A DNA stretch of 64,000 nt from assembly GCA_964344325.1 (NCBI GenBank), contig CAYFMX010000001.1, positions 202,233 through 266,232 on the forward strand, in the 5' to 3' direction. The notes under the pieces are model-generated. The model was not told the origin of the DNA and ran no database searches. It saw only the letters and a list, made by a program, of their open reading frames with translations. The position numbers and the translations under genes are program-made. Source of the DNA: an uncultured Piscirickettsiaceae bacterium. Its GTDB lineage: Bacteria; Pseudomonadota; Gammaproteobacteria; GCF-002020875. Positions 4,683-64,000 of the stretch are shown piece after piece. Positions within the stretch are counted from its first letter, which is position 1. Each line of letters starts with the position of its first letter.

Positions 4683-6434
4683 ATGCTCCCAAAGTTAAAA
4701 CTCCATAATAGTTTTGTTGCATTGTTTTTGTTGGTAGCTGGATGTTCCAGCGTTCCAGGAACATCCATGCAGGCGCAACCATTGGCACATGAACCAGATG
4801 ATTCTCTTTTCTTCAACGTATTGGCTGGGGAGATGGCCAGCCATCTAGGCGATTATCAAACTGCATATAACTATTACCATCGTGCATCCATCCAAACGGA
4901 TCTGAAATTTGTAGCAGAGCGCCATGCACAGCTTGCGATCCACCATCCAGATCCACAGAAAGCAATTAAGGCATTTAAATACTGGATTTCCCTGGAGCCA
5001 CATAACCACGATACACATATCATGTTGGCCACATTGTTGATCCGAAACAACCAGATTGATGCAGCAGTAATACAGTTTGCAGAGATGGTCGAAAAAACGG
5101 GAGCTTCCGAGGAAAAACAAGCAAAGAAAAAGCAAAAACCAAAGCTCAAATCTCGTGTTGATCTTTTCGTAGAAATAGCCGAACAGTTACGTTCTACAGC
5201 GGATCATAAAGTTGCACAACAGATCATGCAGACATTGGTTGATCGTTTTCCGAAAATGCCGGAAGCCAAGTTCGGACAGGCATGGCTCGTATCAAAAACA
5301 AATCAACTGGAATTGGCTCTGACAATAGTTGGACAAACATTGCGTTTGCGACCCGGCTGGGAGAAAGCCGTTGCTTTACGCGTGAAATTACTACAAAAAC
5401 TAGGACGCGATGTAGAAGCATTAGCATTTTTGAAGGATCAGGTTAAGCAATTCCCTAAAGAAGCTGATATTTATATGCATTATGGGAGATTTCTCTTCAA
5501 GAGCAGAAAGCTTCCTGAAGCGATTCAGCAATTTGAGACAGCGTTACGACTCCGCCCTGATCATAACAAGACAGAATTACTCCATCTGTTAAGTGCACTC
5601 TATATTGAACAGGGACAGTATGCGCGAGCAGAAGCAATGTTAATACAAATACTGGAGAAAGATGACAAGCCAGATAGTATCCGCTATGTATTGGGCGAAT
5701 TGGCTGAGCTTCAAGATAAGATAGACATAGCGATCAAATACTACTCTGCTATTGGGAAGGGTAAATTTTATTTTCAGGCACGGCTACGGGTTGCTTCGCT
5801 GGAATCAGAACGGGATATTCCAAAAGCACTTTCCATCTTGCACGGACTATCCCCAGACACTAAAAAACAACAATATCAACGTCTTCTGCTAGAAGCCACA
5901 TTTTTGGAAAAAGGGAAGCAGTACGCTGAAGCGGTGCAAATCTACAACCAAGCATTGGCTGAATTTCCGGAAGATGAAGAGTTGCTCTATGCACGAGCGA
6001 TGGCTTCGGACCAGGTGGGTGATCTAGCAACGCTGGAACGCGATCTCCATGCGATCCTGAAGAAAAATCCGAAGCACTACCATGCGTGGAATGCGCTCGG
6101 TTACACACTGGTGCTGCGTACAACCCGCTACGTGGAAGCGAAAAAATATCTGGAGAAAGCATTAGCGTTGCGTCCGGATGATTATTACACACTCGATAGT
6201 ATGGGTTGGCTGCTCTACAAAACCGGAAAACTGGATGAGGCATTGGATTACCTACAACGCGCATGGGAGGCCAGCCAACAGGAAGATGTCGAAATTGCAG
6301 CCCATTTCGGTGAAGTACGCTGGATGCAAGGCAACAAGGCTGGCGCGGAAGCAATCTGGAAAACTGCAAAAGAATTAGATGCGAAACATCCAGTATTGAT
6401 CGAAACGCTACGCCGTTTGAAAAACAAGCGATAG
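4683..6434 (+). CDS. TPR-repeat lipoprotein
   Basis: 583 aa, signal peptide with lipobox LLVAGCSS, multiple TPR-like helical repeats; a TPR protein precedes lolB in Pseudomonas-type synteny. Confidence 0.6.
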   Translation: MLPKLKLHNSFVALFLLVAGCSSVPGTSMQAQPLAHEPDDSLFFNVLAGEMASHLGDYQTAYNYYHRASIQTDLKFVAERHAQLAIHHPDPQKAIKAFKYWISLEPHNHDTHIMLATLLIRNNQIDAAVIQFAEMVEKTGASEEKQAKKKQKPKLKSRVDLFVEIAEQLRSTADHKVAQQIMQTLVDRFPKMPEAKFGQAWLVSKTNQLELALTIVGQTLRLRPGWEKAVALRVKLLQKLGRDVEALAFLKDQVKQFPKEADIYMHYGRFLFKSRKLPEAIQQFETALRLRPDHNKTELLHLLSALYIEQGQYARAEAMLIQILEKDDKPDSIRYVLGELAELQDKIDIAIKYYSAIGKGKFYFQARLRVASLESERDIPKALSILHGLSPDTKKQQYQRLLLEATFLEKGKQYAEAVQIYNQALAEFPEDEELLYARAMASDQVGDLATLERDLHAILKKNPKHYHAWNALGYTLVLRTTRYVEAKKYLEKALALRPDDYYTLDSMGWLLYKTGKLDEALDYLQRAWEASQQEDVEIAAHFGEVRWMQGNKAGAEAIWKTAKELDAKHPVLIETLRRLKNKR

Positions 6435-6441
6435 AAAAATC

Positions 6442-7116
6442 ATGATACGCCGATTCGTATATCCATTCGCAATTCTTCTATTCGGAAGCATGGTTTTATT
6501 GGGCAGCGGATGCTCGCTACAGCCAAAACCAGTCACAACTTCACAACAAGCAGAGCAAACCATTCTCAGTTGGGCAGAACGACAAGCATTATTGCGCGAA
6601 ATTAAAACATGGGAAATCCGCGGACGGGTTTCCGTGCAAGTTGCCGGACAAGCTTGGCAGAGTACATTTCTGTGGAAAAAAGAACCGGAAAGTGAGCATT
6701 TGCGACTGTTTGGCCTGTTGGGTGCGGGCGGTGCATCACTCCGACGGCACGGGGATAGCGTAGAAGCGATCTGGTCTGGCAAAAAATATCGTTGGGTTGG
6801 CAGTATTACGGAGCGTCTGGAAGAAGAGCTGGGCGAACCGGTTCCAGTCGATGCGTTCCATGCCTGGATGGTCGGCGTTCCTGCATGGAGCACACCATCT
6901 CAGTATAATCTGGACAAGAAAAATCGCATTCAGTCGCTTACGCAGCAAGGCTGGACAGTCGAAATTCCGCGTTACGATGAATCGCATCCAGTACATCTGC
7001 CAAAACGGCTGGAACTCCAGAAAGGCACGATCGAAGTGCGCATCTGGATTTCATCTTGGAAGATCAATAGCGACACGGAGAAACGAACAACCAGAAGAGA
7101 AATGAACGGAATATAA
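6442..7116 (+). CDS. lolB: outer-membrane lipoprotein LolB
   Basis: 224 aa, lipoprotein signal (LLGSGC), sits immediately upstream of ispE as in the lolB-ispE-prs operon. Confidence 0.65.
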   Translation: MIRRFVYPFAILLFGSMVLLGSGCSLQPKPVTTSQQAEQTILSWAERQALLREIKTWEIRGRVSVQVAGQAWQSTFLWKKEPESEHLRLFGLLGAGGASLRRHGDSVEAIWSGKKYRWVGSITERLEEELGEPVPVDAFHAWMVGVPAWSTPSQYNLDKKNRIQSLTQQGWTVEIPRYDESHPVHLPKRLELQKGTIEVRIWISSWKINSDTEKRTTRREMNGI

Positions 7117-54815: not shown

Positions 54816-56294
54816 TTGAGCACCGAAATTCTGGTCAACGTAACCCCCCGCGAAACCCGCACCGCGCTAGTCGAAAGCGGCGTACTGCAAGAAGTCTATA
54901 TTGAACGCAGCAGCCAACTGGGGATGGTCGGCAACATCTACAAAGGCAAAGTGAGCCGCGTACTGCCGGGGATGCAAGCCGCATTCGTCGATGTCGGACT
55001 GGAACGCGCTGCCTTTTTGCATGTCTCCGATATCCGCCCTCGCGCCGCAAAAGAAGAAGTCGTCTGCGAAGAGGGTGAACCTGCGAAAACCATCACTGAA
55101 CTGGTTTCCGAAGGGCAAGAACTGCTGGTTCAAATCATCAAAGAACCGCTCGGCACCAAAGGCGCACGGCTGACGACTCAACTTTCGATCCCATCTCGTT
55201 ATCTCGTCTTTATGCCATCAATTGCCTGCATTGGCGTCTCCCAGCGCATCGAAGAGGAAGAAGAACGCACTCGTTTGCGCAGCACCATGCAGCAAATCGT
55301 CGATGAAAATAGTTCCGGCGGCTTCATCGTGCGCACCGTGGCGGAAGGTGTTTCTGAAGAGGAATTGCGGCGCGAAGCCGGTTTTTTGCACAAGTTGTGG
55401 GACTCCATCATGGAACAGGGCACAGCAGCAAAATCGTGCTCGTTGGTGCATCAGGATTTGCCTCTCGCACTACGCACCATTCGTGATCAGTTGAAAGATT
55501 CGGTCGAGCGGATGCGGATCGACTCTCGCCAAACCTATGAAAAATGTTTGAAATTTGCCTCGCAATTCAATCCGGAACTCGCTTCCCGCGTCGAGCACTA
55601 CATTGAAGAGTCGCCGATTTTTGATTTCTTCTCCATCGACAGCGAAATCCAGAAAGCATTGCAGCGTAAGGTTCCACTCAAGTCAGGAGGCTATCTGATC
55701 ATCGACCAGACCGAAGCGATGACGACGATTGATGTCAATACTGGCTCGTTTGTTGGTCATCATAACTTGGAAGAAACTATCTTCAAAACCAATCTCGAAG
55801 CAACACAGGCAATTGCCCGCCAGGTACGGCTGCGCAATCTGGGTGGCATCATCATCCTTGATTTGATTGATATGGAGCAAGAGGAGCACCGCCAGCAGGT
55901 GATGCGCTCGCTGCAAAAATATCTGGATCATGATCCGGCACGCACCCAAGTCAGCTCTGTTTCTGCACTTGGGCTCGTCGAAATGACCCGCAAACGTACG
56001 CGCGAAAGTCTGGAGTATGTACTCTGTCAAACCTGCCCTACCTGTAGCGGACGCGGCACATTGAAAACGGCAGAAACAGTTTGCTACGAAATCTTCCGCG
56101 AAATCATCCGCGAAGCGCGGCAATATGATGATTCGCGTGAATTTCTGGTACTTGCTGCACAGGAAATTGCCGATCTGTTGCTGGACGAAGAATCAAGCAG
56201 TGTCGCAGAACTGGAAGAATTCATCGGCAAGCCGATCCGGCTGCAGGTCGAGACCCTCTACACCCCGGAGCAGTTCGATGTGGTTCCTGTTTAA
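54816..56294 (+). CDS. rng: ribonuclease G
   Basis: 492 aa, N-terminal S1 domain, near-identical start to E. coli Rng (EILVNVTPRETR), followed by yhdP. Confidence 0.9.
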   Translation: MSTEILVNVTPRETRTALVESGVLQEVYIERSSQLGMVGNIYKGKVSRVLPGMQAAFVDVGLERAAFLHVSDIRPRAAKEEVVCEEGEPAKTITELVSEGQELLVQIIKEPLGTKGARLTTQLSIPSRYLVFMPSIACIGVSQRIEEEEERTRLRSTMQQIVDENSSGGFIVRTVAEGVSEEELRREAGFLHKLWDSIMEQGTAAKSCSLVHQDLPLALRTIRDQLKDSVERMRIDSRQTYEKCLKFASQFNPELASRVEHYIEESPIFDFFSIDSEIQKALQRKVPLKSGGYLIIDQTEAMTTIDVNTGSFVGHHNLEETIFKTNLEATQAIARQVRLRNLGGIIILDLIDMEQEEHRQQVMRSLQKYLDHDPARTQVSSVSALGLVEMTRKRTRESLEYVLCQTCPTCSGRGTLKTAETVCYEIFREIIREARQYDDSREFLVLAAQEIADLLLDEESSSVAELEEFIGKPIRLQVETLYTPEQFDVVPV

Positions 56295-56389: not shown

Positions 56390-59300
56390 ATGAATCCACA
56401 AGCTCGGGAAATTCCCGATTTCTTCCGCATGTTCTATTTTTCACGTTTTCCTCATTTCTGGAAAACGGTCAGAGTATTATTTTTCAGTATTATCAGTATG
56501 CTGTTGGTATTGTGGGGCATATTGTGGACGCTTGTGCCCGTTTCCAGCCTTTACCAGCAACAAGTCGAACAATCTATCTCTGATTTTCTGGATGCACCCT
56601 TTACGTTTGAAACGGTTGAAGCCGAGTTAAACGGCACAATACTTTCTCTCTCCCTTCAGGGCGCAAATGCCAAAAACCAAACAGGTGAAAAAATTCTCCT
56701 GTTTGAAGAAATGCATGCAGAGATTAACCTGCTCCAATCCTTACTCGCATGGGAATGGATTACCAATGAACTGATTTTGTGGAAACCGCAGCTTGCAGTC
56801 CACAAACGCACAGATGGTCAAATGACAGTGAACGGTTTTGTGATGATTCCAGCATCTGTCGATGCTCAAACACACACGAAACAGCAACAAACCGGACAAC
56901 ACATTGAGCAAACTGAAATTTCAGAAATCGAATTCTGGCTTGATTCATTAGAGGAATTGGGCTGGTTATGGAAGCAACCCTATCTGCGTCTGGAACAGGC
57001 TACTTTCTCGTGGAAAATAGATCACCCGGCAGGGCAGTTACATTGGGCGCTTCCTGAAATAAATAGTGTAATTCGTAACGGAAAAGCACGACATCAATTG
57101 TCTGGAACAGCTCAAGTTGGTACTGGAGGCCAAGGGACGTTGCAGTTGGAAGCTGACTGGACTGGCGCATGGAATAATCCGCGTAACTGGCAAGGTGTAC
57201 TACATATTCAAGGCGAATCAGTAGAGATGAAAAATCTGCTCGGTGGTTCAGAAAGCCCATGGCCAGAATTAATTCAAGGACAGCGTGATCTCTCTTTTTG
57301 GGGAGTACATGGCGGGACTGGAAATTGGGAAGTCGTTACTGATTTAGCTGTTGCGGAAAATCAAACAACGAATCAGGGATTACTAGATGGTCAAATTGCG
57401 TGGAAACGCTCTGGAGATGGGAACTGGCGACTAGGGCTCAGTAATTTTTTCTGGTCAGGATATCAACCACTGACTGTATTGATAGAACAACAGGTCTCTC
57501 AGAATGGAGAAACTACCTGGCTAGGACAAACTGAACAACTTGACTTATCTGTACTCAATCCATTTTTACACAATCGGGGCATACAATATCTATTTCCACA
57601 ATTACCTGCACAATTTGATATAGGTGGCTCTTTAGAACAAGCTAATTTTCGTCTGCTGGATCATGGAAAAACTTGGATGGATCGACTACGAGTAGAGGCT
57701 ACGCTGAATCAACTTTCTGCTAAACAGATCAATACAGCTACCCAGTTCGCTGGAATCAGTGGAAAAATACAATGGCGGAAAAACGCAGGTGAATTTATTT
57801 ATCCAAAAAACACCATCCAATTAGCACATCATCATATTGCACCAGAACTACTGCATATGGAGCTAACACCTGGCGTTGTATCATGGACTAAACAAAGCCA
57901 AGGTTGGCAAGTTTCAGCAAAAGAAATTCATTTATCGGATGGTAACCTCATATTCAACAGCGATCTCTCTCTTTTCCTGGAAGAAGGAAAATCACCGCTA
58001 ATTGATGCCAATACCGGTTTCTCTGTACATGATACGGCACCATTATTCCGTAATTTGTCGCAGAGCACATTAGGGCAGCAAGAAATCTGGTTACAGTACG
58101 GCATCCGTCAGGCAGAGCTGGTTAATGGCAAGGTCATACTACGTGGATATCTGGATCAGTTCCCTTACCACCAAGAAGAAGGGGAATTTAAAGTCACCTG
58201 TGATATTCACAATGCTGAAGTGAGATTCATGCGGAATTGGCCACTGCTTAAAAATGCAAATGCACAATTCCAGTTTGATCATCATGGAATGAATGTGGCG
58301 ATTCATTCTGGAGAAATTGCTGGAAATCCAGTACAGCAAGCAAATGTGAAAATCCGCTCATTCCAGAAAAAAGAGCTAGAGGTTGATGTACAACTTGCCA
58401 GCGAGAGTAGAAATCTTATTCATCTTCTGGAACGGGGAGTACTCCAGAAACGCTTAGAAAGTCGATCGTTACCACTATATATAACGGGTATTGCAAACTT
58501 GGATGTGAATATGTTTGTGCCATTACACAATCCAAAACAAACCCAGATACAAGGCACATTACAACTCACTGATAATCAGTTACATCTACCTGATCTTGAT
58601 TTACGGGCGGAAAAACTGTCCGGTGCTATCGCATTTACTAAAAGCACGATCACTGCAGAACAGATTAATGGCCAGATGCTGGGAGGACCTATTCGTATTT
58701 CTGCATCCACGCAACAACAATCCCGAATCAATAATCCAACACAATCTGACTCTCATTTTGTAAAGCTTGTGCTGAAAGGAAAATCTAATCTTCATCACTG
58801 GCCGCCTTGGCAGCAATGGATTAACCCAAAAAAGCAAAAAAATTTAGAGCCACAAAAACATTCCATGTGGCATAGCATTGGAATCATTCCGTTGTCAGCA
58901 TTTCAGGAAAATGAAAAACAACCCATTAGATTTTTGTTCCGTTCTGATCTGGAAGGAGTCGCGATTCCATTGCCGAAACCGCTCCAAAAACAGGTTGGTG
59001 AGCGCTGGCCAACTATGTTTAACGCCGAGATCGGTCAAACACTAGATATGCAATTCATGGTCGATCAACGTCTCCAAGCCAGTGTGATACGAGAAAATAG
59101 CGAGACAGAATTAGAATCTAAAAACATATGGCGTGCCAGCGTATCATTAGGTGATTCACTATATGAAACCAAAACACCTCAACCTGCAACAAAAGCAGTT
59201 TCAGTACGAGATGGAATCTCACTACAAGGAGAGTTTAAAACATTATCACTGCAGCCGTGGTTAGAGACAATCCGTGATCTCATGGATAGAAAACAAGACG

Positions 59301-60496
59301 CAAATTCTTCTATTCCATTACAACAGGCGAATCTCAAAATTGGTGAGCTGAATGCGTATAGCAAGCCACTTCAGAAAGTTACATTGCACATTACACCTCA
59401 AAAATCACAAAATCACAAACAAGCAGATTGGCAAGTACAGATTGATAGCAATCAACTGACAGGCAATATTCTGATTCCAGCTGAGAACAAAAAAAGAGGG
59501 AAAAACACTGATCGTCCCATTGTGTTCAATTTAAAACACATTGCATTGCAAACAAATGACACTAATGAGACAGAAAATGACGCAGCAAATGACACAGAAA
59601 AAAAACAGAAAGCTGCGTCACAGAATGACACGGATACATTTTTTGATCTTCGCACAGTTCCAAAGATGAAAATAACCAGTAACCATTTGCTAGTAGATCA
59701 GAAAGACTGGGGAAAACTTCAACTAGACGTAAAACCAACCAAAGCCGGAATTCTGGTACATCCAATTCATCTCTCTTCCGAATTATTAGATGCCGAAGCA
59801 ACACTTTACTGGGATAAGCAACAAAACGAACATCCACAACGTTCCTCAGTGGCACTAAAAATACAAGGCGACGCACTAAGCAAAGTACTTGATCGCCTCT
59901 CTTCACAGCAAGGCATCATGCAGAAGGGAAAATTTGCGCTTGCTGCTGATGTGGCATGGGAAGGATCGCCAATGCAGTTTATGTGGCCCCGTAGTAGCGG
60001 TGTTGTCCAGATTCATGTTGCAGAAGGTAATATGATTGATCTGGATCAGGGGATTGGACGAGTTTTGAGCTTATTGGGCGTGCATACTCTATTGCGCCGT
60101 CTTTCCCTAGATTTTTCCGATGTTTCTGATCAAGGATTTCCGTTTGATTCAATTACAGGCAATCTGACTATCCAGAATGGCATTGCACAAACGAACGATC
60201 TGACCATTGATGGCATGGCTGCAAAAATCCGTATTGTCGGAAACAGTGATCTGGCAGCTCGAACTTATGACCATACTGTGTTCGTAACACCAAAAATTTC
60301 TGAAACATTACCTGTCACTGGCGCATTGGTAGCGGGCCCAACCGGCGTGGCGATCGGCTCAGCATTGTGGCTCACCGAAAAGGTGCTCAAACGAAACAAA
60401 GGAATCGTCTCCAAAGAATATCTATTGACTGGGAGTTGGGACAATCCACAAATTGAAGAAAAACGTGCTGGAGTATTGGGTGCATTGTTTGACTAA
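56390..60496 (+). CDS. yhdP: YhdP family (AsmA-like) inner-membrane/periplasm-spanning protein
   Basis: 1368 aa, N-terminal TM, long beta-rich repetitive body, conserved rng-yhdP synteny. Confidence 0.75.
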   Translation: MNPQAREIPDFFRMFYFSRFPHFWKTVRVLFFSIISMLLVLWGILWTLVPVSSLYQQQVEQSISDFLDAPFTFETVEAELNGTILSLSLQGANAKNQTGEKILLFEEMHAEINLLQSLLAWEWITNELILWKPQLAVHKRTDGQMTVNGFVMIPASVDAQTHTKQQQTGQHIEQTEISEIEFWLDSLEELGWLWKQPYLRLEQATFSWKIDHPAGQLHWALPEINSVIRNGKARHQLSGTAQVGTGGQGTLQLEADWTGAWNNPRNWQGVLHIQGESVEMKNLLGGSESPWPELIQGQRDLSFWGVHGGTGNWEVVTDLAVAENQTTNQGLLDGQIAWKRSGDGNWRLGLSNFFWSGYQPLTVLIEQQVSQNGETTWLGQTEQLDLSVLNPFLHNRGIQYLFPQLPAQFDIGGSLEQANFRLLDHGKTWMDRLRVEATLNQLSAKQINTATQFAGISGKIQWRKNAGEFIYPKNTIQLAHHHIAPELLHMELTPGVVSWTKQSQGWQVSAKEIHLSDGNLIFNSDLSLFLEEGKSPLIDANTGFSVHDTAPLFRNLSQSTLGQQEIWLQYGIRQAELVNGKVILRGYLDQFPYHQEEGEFKVTCDIHNAEVRFMRNWPLLKNANAQFQFDHHGMNVAIHSGEIAGNPVQQANVKIRSFQKKELEVDVQLASESRNLIHLLERGVLQKRLESRSLPLYITGIANLDVNMFVPLHNPKQTQIQGTLQLTDNQLHLPDLDLRAEKLSGAIAFTKSTITAEQINGQMLGGPIRISASTQQQSRINNPTQSDSHFVKLVLKGKSNLHHWPPWQQWINPKKQKNLEPQKHSMWHSIGIIPLSAFQENEKQPIRFLFRSDLEGVAIPLPKPLQKQVGERWPTMFNAEIGQTLDMQFMVDQRLQASVIRENSETELESKNIWRASVSLGDSLYETKTPQPATKAVSVRDGISLQGEFKTLSLQPWLETIRDLMDRKQDANSSIPLQQANLKIGELNAYSKPLQKVTLHITPQKSQNHKQADWQVQIDSNQLTGNILIPAENKKRGKNTDRPIVFNLKHIALQTNDTNETENDAANDTEKKQKAASQNDTDTFFDLRTVPKMKITSNHLLVDQKDWGKLQLDVKPTKAGILVHPIHLSSELLDAEATLYWDKQQNEHPQRSSVALKIQGDALSKVLDRLSSQQGIMQKGKFALAADVAWEGSPMQFMWPRSSGVVQIHVAEGNMIDLDQGIGRVLSLLGVHTLLRRLSLDFSDVSDQGFPFDSITGNLTIQNGIAQTNDLTIDGMAAKIRIVGNSDLAARTYDHTVFVTPKISETLPVTGALVAGPTGVAIGSALWLTEKVLKRNKGIVSKEYLLTGSWDNPQIEEKRAGVLGALFD

Positions 60497-60579: not shown

Positions 60580-61197
60580 CTACAAACTACCGCCATGAAA
60601 CAACAAACGCGGTAATGTTTCCTCGTCCCCAAAATGGTCAATCTGGATACGTGTGATTTTTGCATTTGATACTTGAATACGGAACATATTTTCCGGCGCA
60701 ACGCCAAGCACATGACAAAGAATCATCCGCATCATCCCGGCATGACCAACCATCAGCAAATGCTCCCCGGCAAATTTTTGTGTAACTTGTTCCCAGCTTT
60801 CTGAAATTCGTTGTTGGAATTCCAGTACTGTCTCCGCACCGGGCGGTGTGTTGTTGAGCGGATCGCTCCAGAAACGGTAGAGAATTTCCGGGTCAGACTC
60901 CATCAACTCTTGCGAAGTTTTCCCTTCCCATTCTCCGAAACCGATCTCCATCAGCCCTGGCTCCGCTTCGACTGGAATGTTATAGCGTTCTCCTACTTCC
61001 TGTGCAAACTCTGCGCAACGACTGAGCGGTGAAGTGACAATTTGTGTCCAAGGATGATGATCGCCGACTGCGTTGCGCATTTGAGACCATCCTTTTTCGC
61101 TAAGTGGATCATCCATTTGCCCACGATAGCGTTTTCCGCCTACTGGCTCACCGTGGCGGATTAGGTCAACGGTAGTGGTGATTATTTGGTCAGACAT
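60580..61197 (-). CDS. histidine phosphatase family protein (phosphoglycerate mutase-like)
   Basis: 205 aa, catalytic RHGE motif near the N-terminus (LIRHGEP), second His in the GHAG region. Confidence 0.7.
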   Translation of the reverse strand: MSDQIITTTVDLIRHGEPVGGKRYRGQMDDPLSEKGWSQMRNAVGDHHPWTQIVTSPLSRCAEFAQEVGERYNIPVEAEPGLMEIGFGEWEGKTSQELMESDPEILYRFWSDPLNNTPPGAETVLEFQQRISESWEQVTQKFAGEHLLMVGHAGMMRMILCHVLGVAPENMFRIQVSNAKITRIQIDHFGDEETLPRLLFHGGSL

Positions 61198-61283: not shown

Positions 61284-61835
61284 CTATAACAATGAACGAA
61301 ACCGTACCCAATCAAACACTGCACCCGGATCAGTTTTCCGCCCCGGCGCAATATCGCAATGCCCGACGATTCGCGCTTGGGTAATTTTCGGATAATGGTT
61401 CTGGATCGCCTGTGCCAGCAGCACAAGTTGTTCATATTGCGCGTCCGTGTAAGGGATCACATCTGTCCCTTCCAACTCAATGCCGATGGAAAAATCATTG
61501 CACTTTTCACGTCCTTGAAAAACAGATTTTCCAGCATGCCATGCACGTTTTTCGAATGGAACATATTGCACGACTTCACCAGTACGGTGAATTAGACAGT
61601 GGCTGGAAACTTGTAATTTCGCTAATTCCAAAAAATCCGGGTATGCATTCACATCCAATGTATTGGTGAACAATTGATCGATATAAGGCGTACCAAACTC
61701 TCCAGCAGGTAAGCTAATCCCGTGAATGACAAGTAAATCAATCGCTGTTTTTTCTGGACGCGTATCGCAGTTTGGGGAAGGAAGATGACGAATATTTGTG
61801 ATCCACCCCTCTTCATCAATCTGGAATGTTTTAAT
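61284..61835 (-). CDS. ampD: 1,6-anhydro-N-acetylmuramyl-L-alanine amidase AmpD
   Basis: Manual translation upstream of the ORF-track start recovers the full AmpD N-terminus (ITNIRHLPSPNCDTRPE...LLVIHGISLPAGEFGTPYIDQLF), giving 183 aa as in E. coli; the only possible initiator is ATT at 61833-61835. Confidence 0.65.
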   Translation of the reverse strand: MKTFQIDEEGWITNIRHLPSPNCDTRPEKTAIDLLVIHGISLPAGEFGTPYIDQLFTNTLDVNAYPDFLELAKLQVSSHCLIHRTGEVVQYVPFEKRAWHAGKSVFQGREKCNDFSIGIELEGTDVIPYTDAQYEQLVLLAQAIQNHYPKITQARIVGHCDIAPGRKTDPGAVFDWVRFRSLL

Positions 61836-62235
61836 CGTGTGGCATCCCTTTCAGTACCAGATCAGTCAAGCTGACAATCCCGATTACCTCACGGTCTTTA
61901 ATGACAGGTGCACGGGAGAGGTGGAATTGGCCAAACAGACGTGCACAGTAGCGGATGTCCATATCCGGATCGACCGTTACCACTGGCTTGGTCATCACTT
62001 CATAAACATTGACTCGCGATGGAGCGCGGTCTTTACCAAGCACCTGGCGGGCGATATCAGAGACCAGTAACATTCCATATTCGTCATCTTCGTGACGCTT
62101 TTTCACAATCATTGCTTTGGTTTCAACATGTTTCATGTGCGCTAACGCATCAGCAATCGTATCCAGGCCATCCGCCAGATCAAATTCCGTTTTCATCACG
62201 TCCCGTACGCGGACGGTTTTCTTCTCTTCGCTCAT
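61831..62235 (-). CDS. CBS-pair domain protein
   Basis: 134 aa, tandem CBS motifs; start at the internal Met (MSEEKK) abutting the stop of the P-II-like gene. Confidence 0.6.
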   Translation of the reverse strand: MSEEKKTVRVRDVMKTEFDLADGLDTIADALAHMKHVETKAMIVKKRHEDDEYGMLLVSDIARQVLGKDRAPSRVNVYEVMTKPVVTVDPDMDIRYCARLFGQFHLSRAPVIKDREVIGIVSLTDLVLKGMPHD

Positions 62236-62576
62236 ATCTGTTCCTCCACCACATCCGTCAGTTTGCGGATATGTCCTTCCAGTCCAATCATATCTTCCAC
62301 ATCCAGCTGGAAAACCACGCCATCGCCATTGTCGAAATTCCCGGCTTCGGCAACCTTCTCCAGAATATTGCGGCTGAGATGCTCTTCCACCAACGTCAAT
62401 ACCATATCGCGCTGGGTATTGATCGCCAGTCCCCAAAACCCTTTCGCCCCTTCCAGGCCTTCACCACGCACCTGATTAAGCACGGTAACCCCCGTTGCGC
62501 CTGCATCTCGCGCTGCTTTGATCACTGCATCGGTTTTCCCGTCATCCACCAACGCCACCAATAATTTGAAATGCAT
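62232..62576 (-). CDS. P-II-like (GlnB superfamily) signalling protein
   Basis: 114 aa, ferredoxin-like fold with a glycine-rich T-loop-like region (RGEGLEGAKG); not canonical GlnB/GlnK. Confidence 0.55.
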   Translation of the reverse strand: MHFKLLVALVDDGKTDAVIKAARDAGATGVTVLNQVRGEGLEGAKGFWGLAINTQRDMVLTLVEEHLSRNILEKVAEAGNFDNGDGVVFQLDVEDMIGLEGHIRKLTDVVEEQI

Positions 62577-62698
62577 CAGGAAATTCTCCTTTGCGCCATA
62601 AAAGTAATTTATAAATTAAATTCTGAAATTAATTTTTTTGAATTTGAAGAGTAAAACGAGAAATTTGGAAAATAGAAGAAAATAAAAATAAGCAGCTA

Positions 62699-63496
62699 CT
62701 ATTTCGCACTCATCTTCTTTGATTTTGATTTCGCAATCCAGCCAGAAATTTGTACGTATCCCATCACTGTCATAATCGGAAAGAGGCAGGTAAATGCGAT
62801 CAGTCCAAATCCATCCAACATGGCGCTTCGTCCTGGCACGGAACTCGCCAGCCCAAGCCCCAACGCCGCGACCAGTGGTACGGTTACTGTTGAAGTGGTC
62901 ACACCACCTGAATCATAGGCTAACGCAGTGATCGTACGGGGAGCATAATAAGTTTGAATCATGACCACAATATAACCAGCGATAATAAAGTAATAGAGTG
63001 GAATACCGACCACAATTCTCCATGAGCCTAATGCAATGCCGGTCGCCGCACCCACTGCCACGGCAATACGTAAGCCCGTCGCAGAAACCGTTCCGCCAGA
63101 AACCTGCTGCGCCTTCAACGCCACTGCTAATAAAGATGGTTCAGCAATCGTGGTCGAAAAACCGAGGGTAAAGGCGAAGATATAAACCCATTTGTAATCC
63201 TGCCATCGCAATGCCGTCGCCACGCTTTCTGCACCATCGGTAATGCCTTTGATAAACGTAGGATCCGAAAGCTGCGTTGCCATCAATTTTCCGATTGGGA
63301 ACAGCGCTTGATCCAAGCCCATCAAAAACAGCGTCAGTCCAAGCAGTACATAGACAAAGCCAACCACCATTTTGGATAAATTCGGAATCGGTTTGCGAAT
63401 CACAAACAATTGGAAACCGATCACAATGACCAAAATGGGCAACAGGTCGCGCATCGTTGCCAGCAAGGTAGAAAGAAAAGTGGTGAGTGTTTCCAT
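62699..63496 (-). CDS. DUF1538 family integral membrane protein
   Basis: 265 aa, multi-TM, conserved [22 protein letters not shown] segment shared with the next gene. Confidence 0.6.
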   Translation of the reverse strand: METLTTFLSTLLATMRDLLPILVIVIGFQLFVIRKPIPNLSKMVVGFVYVLLGLTLFLMGLDQALFPIGKLMATQLSDPTFIKGITDGAESVATALRWQDYKWVYIFAFTLGFSTTIAEPSLLAVALKAQQVSGGTVSATGLRIAVAVGAATGIALGSWRIVVGIPLYYFIIAGYIVVMIQTYYAPRTITALAYDSGGVTTSTVTVPLVAALGLGLASSVPGRSAMLDGFGLIAFTCLFPIMTVMGYVQISGWIAKSKSKKMSAK

Positions 63497-64000
63497 TACA
63501 GCAACATCCCGTATCCCATGACGAAAATCATCGGTGTCAGTGAGGCAAATGCAATCAGACCGAAGCCGTCCGTCATCGGATTGCGTCCTTTGATCGACGT
63601 CGCCAATCCAACACCCAATGCAGTTACCAGTGGCACGGTCACCGTTGAGGTGGTGACGCCACCTGCATCGTAGGCAATCCCAATAATTTCGGTGGGCGCA
63701 AACAAGGTCATTGCCACCACGCCGAGGTAGCCGCCGATAATCAGATAGTGGATCGGCCAGCCTTTCAGAATGCGTAACACACCAATCAAAATTGCAAACC
63801 CGACCGCCAGAGCAACGGTGTAACGCAGGCCGCTGGCGTAAGATTCTTTTGCTTCTTCAGATTGCTCCAGTAAACCACCTGCAGCAGCGATTTCTGCCGC
63901 TTCTTTGGCAACTGCAATCAACGCCGGTTCTGCAACAGTGGTACTAAATCCAAGCAAAAATGCGAAGGTGAGTAACCAGAATAGACTTCCTTTTTTGGCG
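63496..64000 (-). CDS. DUF1538 family integral membrane protein (paralog; 5' end beyond the window)
   Basis: Reading frame continues to the window edge; paralogous to the preceding gene ([22 protein letters not shown]). Confidence 0.55.

Follow-up and report, generated by a model that had tools for sequence, protein, structure and literature searches.

In the DUF1538 family of membrane proteins a single pair is known to have been studied, UmpAB of Halomonas zhaodongensis, reported to be an antiporter that exchanges Na+(Li+,K+) for H+ (Meng et al. 2017, PMC5484666). Both ump genes are required there to rescue Escherichia coli KNabc on NaCl, on LiCl and at alkaline pH, UmpA and UmpB co-immunoprecipitate as a heterodimer, and in everted vesicles the pair exchanges Na+, Li+ and K+ for H+, with K0.5 values of 0.26-0.46 mM and highest activity at pH 9 (PMC5484666). 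The genes umpA and umpB overlap in the sequence TAATG, loops specific to each subunit are described, and the cloned fragment, which stopped at umpB, was active in E. coli without partners (PMC5484666). Here we describe a four-gene cluster at the end of a 64,000-nucleotide stretch of contig CAYFMX010000001.1 from an uncultured Piscirickettsiaceae bacterium (the window, meaning the whole stretch analysed), in which an UmpA-type and an UmpB-type gene are followed by genes for a P-II-like protein and a CBS-pair protein. We consider it probable that the cluster encodes an UmpAB-type heterodimeric monovalent-cation/proton antiporter with two dedicated cytoplasmic sensor subunits, the P-II-like and the CBS protein.

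The arrangement also resembles GlnK-AmtB and SbtB-SbtA, in that a small P-II-fold gene adjoins a transporter gene, the two are conserved together across phyla and the T-loop is conserved. It differs from both in that the DUF1538 transporter is unrelated and that the P-II-like protein is joined by a CBS partner or by a second P-II domain; a ligand-dependent plug role would be expected for the P-II-like protein by this likeness. In MgtE, ClC, OpuA/OpuC and CNNM/CorC a Bateman module is tied to an ion transporter, where sensing of an adenosine ligand or of ionic strength is expected. The CBS pair described here differs from these in being a polypeptide of its own and no domain of the transporter, encoded by a gene that overlaps the P-II-like gene.

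A search of the full-text literature, with subscription-only papers outside its reach, returned no link of DUF1538 or UmpAB to P-II or CBS proteins in the texts accessible to it, and the DUF1538 pairing was not found in the literature searched on P-II-like proteins. In a machine-learning study, DUF1538 is among the Pfam families that predict growth pH, beside Mrp and K+ transporters, a listing that fits a cation/proton role of the family. The UmpAB-type antiporter family is already known; what appears to be new, going by the literature searched, is its consistent pairing with a dedicated P-II-like protein.

Results

All four genes of the cluster lie on the minus strand. Gene 1, the UmpA-type DUF1538 gene (A), is cut by the window end, which leaves its last 167 codons (63999..63499, stop codon 63498..63496); on the source contig, a metagenome contig of 112 kb in ENA, the gene is complete (L001:1400-2134, 244 amino acids (aa)) and is preceded by a divergent Kdo-kinase-like gene. 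Gene 2, the UmpB-type DUF1538 gene (B, 63496..62699, 265 aa), overlaps A by 1 nucleotide (nt) in the sequence TAATG, its ATG sharing a base with the stop codon of A. An AT-rich spacer of 122 nt (62698..62577) separates B from the P-II-family gene (62576..62232, 114 aa), which the CBS-pair gene overlaps by 4 nt (ATGA); the latter runs from an ATG at 62235 to 61831 and encodes a stand-alone Bateman module of 134 aa. Pfam assigns A and B to DUF1538 (PF07556; 2.5e-52 and 4.3e-65, both well above the gathering score of 22.6), the third product to P-II (PF00543; 8e-13, 49 bits against a cut-off of 25) and the fourth to CBS (PF00571; 1.4e-16, 61 bits). Coordinates and Pfam matches agree with the original prediction, made from the letters of the DNA, of a four-gene cluster with 1-nt and 4-nt overlaps, and the core it had noticed in both DUF1538 paralogs is there as well: A and B are 51% identical and have a core of 17 letters in common. 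The prediction mentions neither the truncation of A by the window end nor the 122-nt spacer.

The two membrane proteins were compared with the NCBIfam models for UmpA and UmpB (NF041627 and NF041628). The full A protein scores 370 bits to UmpA against 197 to UmpB, and its window fragment 274 to UmpA; B scores 345 bits to UmpB against 205 to UmpA. In an alignment of 13 diverse DUF1538 sequences, A carries the UmpA-type insertion in loop III-IV and B the UmpB-type insertion in loop II-III together with a basic C-terminal tail, and the acidic residues D17, E119, D195 and D228 are invariant. The locus is therefore like umpAB in having adjacent DUF1538 paralogs with a TAATG overlap, of which the first is closest to UmpA and the second to UmpB, and in the subunit-specific loops, the basic B tail and the conserved Asp/Glu positions. 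On sequence grounds we class genes 1 and 2 as UmpA-type and UmpB-type homologues, short of proven iso-functional orthologues. The P-II-like and CBS partners lie outside the published system: only umpAB was cloned there, and that report does not consider downstream genes.

These comparisons bear on several statements of the original prediction. It had called the cluster uncharacterised, which holds for the unstudied P-II-like and CBS partners and not for the membrane pair, since this matches the models of an antiporter reported in 2017; the unknown substrate that it gave is out of date for the same reason, UmpAB having been reported as a Na+(Li+,K+)/H+ antiporter. The heterodimeric transporter that it proposed has experimental backing in UmpAB, a homologue whose subunits co-immunoprecipitate and have to be co-expressed. 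Its tandem duplication is correct as to a paralogous pair, with the difference that the A-type and B-type lineages are separable across the whole family and the duplication is ancient.

Conservation of the cluster was followed in a scan of one genome per species with a three-sequence alignment, which turned up at least 584 relatives. Of these we retained the best 80 loci, all of them fairly close relatives with 59-69% identity to B, and gene presence in them was scored by tblastn with the window proteins. A, B and the P-II-like gene were found in the same order and on the same strand in 79 of the 80 loci, and the CBS gene in 76, so that the lack of co-conservation elsewhere, named in the original prediction as the observation that would count against it, was not what we saw. 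Carriers include Vibrio, Enterovibrio, Photobacterium, Aliivibrio, Colwellia, Thalassotalea, Amphritea, Motiliproteus and Methylophaga, as well as Sedimenticola, Thiomicrorhabdus, Beggiatoa-like and Thiomargarita metagenome-assembled genomes (MAGs) and a Desulfobacula MAG, among others. Two of the four CBS-negative loci reach a contig edge (L052 and L071), whereas the CBS gene is truly absent from a Thiomicrorhabdus MAG (L054); in a Thiomargarita locus (L037) no P-II gene was found in the remaining 670 bp. When the flanking open reading frames (ORFs) were clustered, other families occurred in at most 15 of the 80 loci (ampD in 15, a 282-aa family in 12). Since the neighbourhoods are otherwise unrelated, the four genes behave as an autonomous module. 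Overlaps of 1 or 4 nt join A and B in 62 of the 80 loci; the P-II-like and CBS genes overlap in 69 of 76, with 4 nt shared in 59 loci and 1 nt in 10. Such overlaps imply translational coupling within each gene pair.

Some of these loci show variants of the arrangement. In a Halomonas-labelled MAG two successive P-II-like genes precede the CBS gene, giving A-B-P-II-P-II-CBS (L061:6789-7930). In three loci (L035, L036 and L064, about 5110-6760, ~65% identity) a single ORF of 553-556 aa encodes both A and B, with ~57 aa between them as a linker, which makes a naturally single-chain form of the heterodimer. The Thiomicrorhabdus locus that lacks the CBS gene has, convergent and right after the P-II-like gene, a gene for a 662-aa protein (L054:7348-9336, minus strand) that would by its sequence be a Kef-type CPA2 cation/proton antiporter. 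MAGs labelled as a Halobacteria archaeon, Bathyarchaeota and Acidobacteriota (L006, L051 and L081) hold clusters 62-67% identical to that of the window, on contigs that are probably mis-binned.

Among 1.84 billion cluster representatives, a search at E<=1e-3 returned 2,666 relatives of DUF1538, many being single-chain A+B fusions of ~500 aa. Distant genomic contexts, with 28-42% identity and including Bacillota, were sampled one by one, and a P-II-family gene lay downstream in seven of the seven where the position was visible, the match at L094 being only faint. The order A-B-P-II-CBS was found at 37% identity to B (L085), the only sampled distant locus with a CBS gene, and A-B-P-II without CBS at 42%, with a universal stress protein (Usp) gene upstream (L093). 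At 28% identity to B, fused AB proteins are followed by two 102-aa P-II-like genes (L086-L089; for example L086:5638-6267). Other fused AB genes are followed by a tandem two-domain P-II-like protein, of at least 201 aa at L091 (1792-2394) and of 216 aa at L092 (5815-6465), or by a gene for a 388-aa protein with the faint P-II match (L094). On a plasmid of Paraclostridium bifermentans (Bacillota), a 500-aa fused DUF1538 gene is overlapped by a gene for a 222-aa P-II protein (L095:5566-6234), annotated in RefSeq as 'P-II family nitrogen regulator'. In the distant arrangements with two P-II domains there is no CBS gene, and the first domain is far more degenerate than the second. That a second P-II domain sits there where CBS is found here suggests a two-part regulator as a general design.

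P-II is thus the deep partner of DUF1538 and CBS a later addition. Of the two sensor subunits in the original prediction, the P-II protein proved to be a general partner of the family, and the CBS protein a partner in part of it only.

Proteins in which the two components are fused were also found. One 659-aa ORF joins A, B and P-II (P0122), and five proteins join B and P-II (P0131, P0153, P0160, P0137 and P0261); these fusions are supportive of a physical partnership, short of conclusive. A further A+B fusion from outside the window (P0123, 724 aa) carries a C-terminal cytidylate-kinase-like P-loop domain in the place of P-II, so that a further type of nucleotide-binding module is joined to this transporter.

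The P-II-like protein is by sequence only distantly related to solved GlnK/GlnB proteins (best E 3e-4). An AlphaFold model, built with database proteins only, has a beta-alpha-beta-beta-alpha-beta core with a mean predicted local distance difference test (pLDDT) of 68 and low confidence in the T-loop (residues 39-51) and the C-terminus. A Foldseek search of the PDB with it gave 187 matches at E<=1e-3, of which the best 50 are all P-II or P-II-like; GlnB/GlnK/GlnZ, SbtB and CPII are matched about equally (E ~1e-5 to 1e-4, TM-score 0.5-0.6). For the residue alignment we used a sequence that we take to be the E. coli GlnB reference. Compared with it, the glycine-rich nucleotide cradle is retained (G-A-T-G-x-T-V, R-G-E-G and G-x-G), whereas the ATP/2-oxoglutarate residues of canonical GlnB/GlnK are replaced (R38 by L, Q39 by E, K90 by V, R101 by G and R103 by E). 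Four of the five basic ATP-phosphate residues are gone, the position of K58 being perhaps held by a conserved R56; the sensing of adenine nucleotides that the original prediction ascribed to the P-II-like protein is accordingly no more than putative. Nor is the 20-residue T-loop with Tyr51 kept: the loop is 5 residues shorter than that of GlnB and lacks a counterpart of Tyr51.

Across 48 family members the T-loop residues K45, T46, F47, G49 and L50 are invariant or nearly so, as are the motifs R56-D57-M, V63-E-E-H-x-S-R and F-Q-x-D-V-E-D-A-x-G. That the T-loop is conserved while the phosphate-binding residues have degenerated suggests that the protein has a fixed protein partner and binds either a non-canonical ligand or none. 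Compared pairwise with phmmer, most DUF1538-linked P-II-like proteins score 25-125 bits to each other and 0-22 bits to E. coli GlnB, indicating that they form one dedicated subfamily. The protein differs from SbtB in its neighbour, DUF1538 and not SbtA, and in lacking the C-terminal Cys-containing R-loop, its end being the cysteine-free LTDVVEEQI; its structural similarity to SbtB is no better than that to GlnB. A PstA/DarA-type receptor of cyclic di-AMP was rejected as an identity, the window protein having no match to PF06153 (CdAMP_rec) at E<=0.01; the L085 homologue reaches only 15.5 bits (E 0.02) against a cut-off of 27.

The closest solved relative of the CBS protein is by far the CBS pair of Microcystis CBS-CP12 (5nmu, E 2e-24). 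The two are 37.5% identical over 120 residues, in a full-length alignment to residues 7-126 of 5nmu, and the protein likewise aligns over its full length with 1pvm; of 31 positions conserved in 72 antiporter-linked CBS proteins, 23 are shared with 5nmu. The CBS pair of Microcystis aeruginosa CBS-CP12 binds AMP, and not ADP, ATP or cAMP, and the protein acts on the soluble enzyme phosphoribulokinase (Hackenberg et al. 2018, PMC6142219). By comparison with this AMP-specific nearest solved relative, AMP would be the most likely ligand of the CBS protein. The CP12 domain is missing, since the 134-aa protein ends 5 residues past the CBS pair; this leaves no basis for a hexamer or for action on phosphoribulokinase, and the genomic context is another. 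Homologues are abundant stand-alone proteins of ~134 aa with generic names only, and the NCBIfam matches of the protein, to ClcB and MgtE, are weak.

For the fold of the transporter we used AlphaFold, with 33 aligned sequences, on P0121, a naturally fused A+B protein that is 54% identical to B. The model is confident (pLDDT 91.2, predicted template-modelling score 0.90), and in it each half consists of long helices and a pair of short helix-break-helix elements; those of the first half lie at residues 84-100/103-115 and 170-182/188-202. The helix breaks carry the most conserved motifs, A-E-P and Y-D-x-G-G-V-T-T. Read from the secondary-structure string of the model, these elements might be re-entrant, elevator-like hairpins, which we treat as a lead. 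A sequence search of the PDB for DUF1538 gave no match. Foldseek with the A+B model returned nothing at E<=1e-3, its top matches being VcINDY and the EAATs (E 8e-3, probability 0.85, TM-score only 0.20); the empty search and the TM-score to VcINDY rule out a solved structural homologue, and no fold could be assigned. Structure prediction, which had been proposed as a check of the heterodimer, has thus given a confident model of the fused pair that matches no solved fold.

At 122 nt, the spacer that follows B exceeds its counterpart in 78 of 79 related loci, whose gaps have a median of ~12 nt. It contains the Shine-Dalgarno sequence AAAGGAG ahead of the ATG of the P-II-like gene; no promoter-like or terminator-like site and no Rfam match were found in it. 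A riboswitch or other RNA element in the operon or spacer was rejected, because Rfam at E<=1 gave only a spurious miRNA match outside the spacer, the spacer folds no better than shuffled sequence (z = +1.27), its sequence is unique within the window and its length is unconserved elsewhere. We also set aside an anti-phage defence system, PADLOC matching none of the four proteins.

The neighbours named in the original prediction are those found. The gene ampD lies downstream of the CBS gene on the minus strand (about 61820..61284; PRK11789, 281 bits) and is followed by a hairpin resembling an intrinsic terminator (window 61270-61249, L001 4360-4381). Beyond it lies a histidine phosphatase gene (61197..60580, 205 aa; TIGR03162 alpha-ribazole phosphatase, 166 bits against a cut-off of 162.9). 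The adjacency of ampD, though real here, is a lineage feature outside the conserved unit: ampD is directly downstream in only 15 of the 80 loci, and the phosphatase adjoins in only a few, for which reason neither is counted as part of the system. At this locus ampD is probably co-transcribed with the cluster.

The start of ampD is unusual (window 61800-61830, minus strand): no in-frame ATG, GTG or TTG precedes the conserved N-terminus (IDEEGWITNIRHLPSPN...). Either an ATT at 61820 serves as the start, or the frame shifts by one base from an ATG at 61816 across a GGGG run. The identical start sequence occurs in two more assemblies, from other runs of the same metagenome project, and ampD in related loci begins with a usual ATG or GTG codon. 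Upstream of the histidine phosphatase gene, on the opposite strand, are a gene for a 1368-aa YhdP-family protein (56390-60496, plus strand) and an RNase E/G-family gene (54816-56294, plus strand); both are ordinary gammaproteobacterial housekeeping context.

Discussion

From the gene context we infer, as is natural for such an arrangement, that the P-II-like and CBS proteins regulate the transporter. The P-II-like protein, a presumed trimer as other P-II proteins are, would dock on the cytoplasmic face beside the C-terminus of B, where the fusions join it. Its short conserved T-loop (K-T-F-F-G-L) would gate or plug the transporter, in the manner of GlnK acting on AmtB and of SbtB acting on SbtA. 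The CBS pair, made together with the P-II-like protein, would report an adenosine nucleotide, most likely AMP, or energy status, and shift the equilibrium between P-II-like protein and transporter. Na+/K+-H+ exchange, which consumes proton-motive force, would thereby be throttled at low energy. Because umpAB alone is active in E. coli, both partners would be modulators, unneeded for transport as such.

Several points count against this interpretation. Gating by the two partners is argued from analogy, and the trimeric stoichiometry (AB)3(P-II)3 is something we infer and no more. With so many phosphate-binding residues replaced, the P-II-like protein may not bind ATP or ADP. The fusions that place it beside B come from one contig each, two of them just 1.2-1.4 kb long, and may be assembly or frameshift artefacts. 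As for the substrate, the antiport assignment of the family comes from a single heterologous study, which used complementation of E. coli KNabc and acridine-orange dequenching, and carrying it over to the window proteins would be an extrapolation across ~55-65% identity. Both proteins fall below the equivalog cut-offs of the NCBIfam models (370 bits against 490 for UmpA, 345 against 500 for UmpB), a difference from UmpAB proper. The models appear to be very narrow, since the Halomonas-labelled MAG (L061) is below the cut-offs too, at 356 bits for UmpA and 345 for UmpB; among the homologues retrieved with its B subunit, none carries the name UmpB.

The real substrate could differ from that of UmpAB. 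A Na+-coupled anion or small metabolite, for example inorganic carbon, would be carried, antiport would be a side activity, and the P-II-like/CBS pair would match uptake to carbon and energy. The known P-II/transporter pairs, AmtB-GlnK and SbtA-SbtB, carry nutrients; the predicted hairpin-like elements with motifs at their tips resemble those of elevator-type Na+ symporters, and VcINDY and the EAATs were the only Foldseek matches of any probability, at a TM-score of 0.20. The closest CBS relative belongs to a regulator of the Calvin cycle, and many carriers are sulfur-oxidising or methylotrophic autotrophs (Thiohalomonadaceae, Beggiatoa, Sedimenticola, Thiomicrorhabdus, Methylophaga). However, heterotrophs equally carry the cluster (Vibrio, Colwellia, Thalassotalea, Photobacterium, Paraclostridium), the 80 flanks have no conserved gene for a carboxysome, for RubisCO or for any other substrate-specific function, and cation/H+ exchange by UmpAB was measured directly in vesicles with a sub-millimolar K0.5. 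We regard such a substrate as unlikely.

The direction of signalling might also be the reverse, with the transporter serving mainly as a sensor or anchor that sequesters or releases the P-II-like and CBS proteins, which would then signal to other cytoplasmic targets. P-II proteins typically have several targets: GlnK and SbtB act on soluble enzymes too, and SbtB also controls glycogen metabolism. The CBS-CP12 relative acts on soluble phosphoribulokinase, and umpAB alone is reported to be fully active in E. coli. Against this stands that the P-II-like subfamily adjoins DUF1538 in every context seen, with no third conserved partner gene, and that covalent fusion to a transporter is more to be expected of a dedicated local regulator than of a signal protein that shuttles. 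A main role as sensor or anchor therefore seems to us distinctly improbable. Neutral inheritance of gene order within one gammaproteobacterial lineage, which ancestry alone could explain for 80 loci as close as 59-69% identity, is effectively excluded, since the flanks of these loci are otherwise unrelated, the pairing of DUF1538 with P-II recurs at 28-42% identity and in Bacillota, the genes overlap and fused proteins exist.

P-II proteins are among the most widespread signal proteins, and their known transporter targets carry nitrogen (AmtB) or inorganic carbon (SbtA). Tentatively, and with somewhat less confidence than we place in the regulated antiporter itself, DUF1538 transporters with their dedicated P-II-like proteins may represent a third class of P-II-controlled transporter beside AmtB/GlnK and SbtA/SbtB, one that is ancient, spans phyla and has a membrane fold with no solved relative and with what may be re-entrant hairpins. 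This would tie P-II signalling to Na+/K+/H+ homeostasis, that is to pH and salt, with an AMP-sensing CBS partner in the gammaproteobacterial branch. With its DUF1538 fold lacking a solved homologue, a complex of A, B and the P-II-like protein is an attractive structural target. If the interpretation is correct, the single published UmpAB study, which concerns the membrane pair alone, would gain its missing regulatory context, and the principle of P-II control would extend to cation/proton and pH homeostasis.

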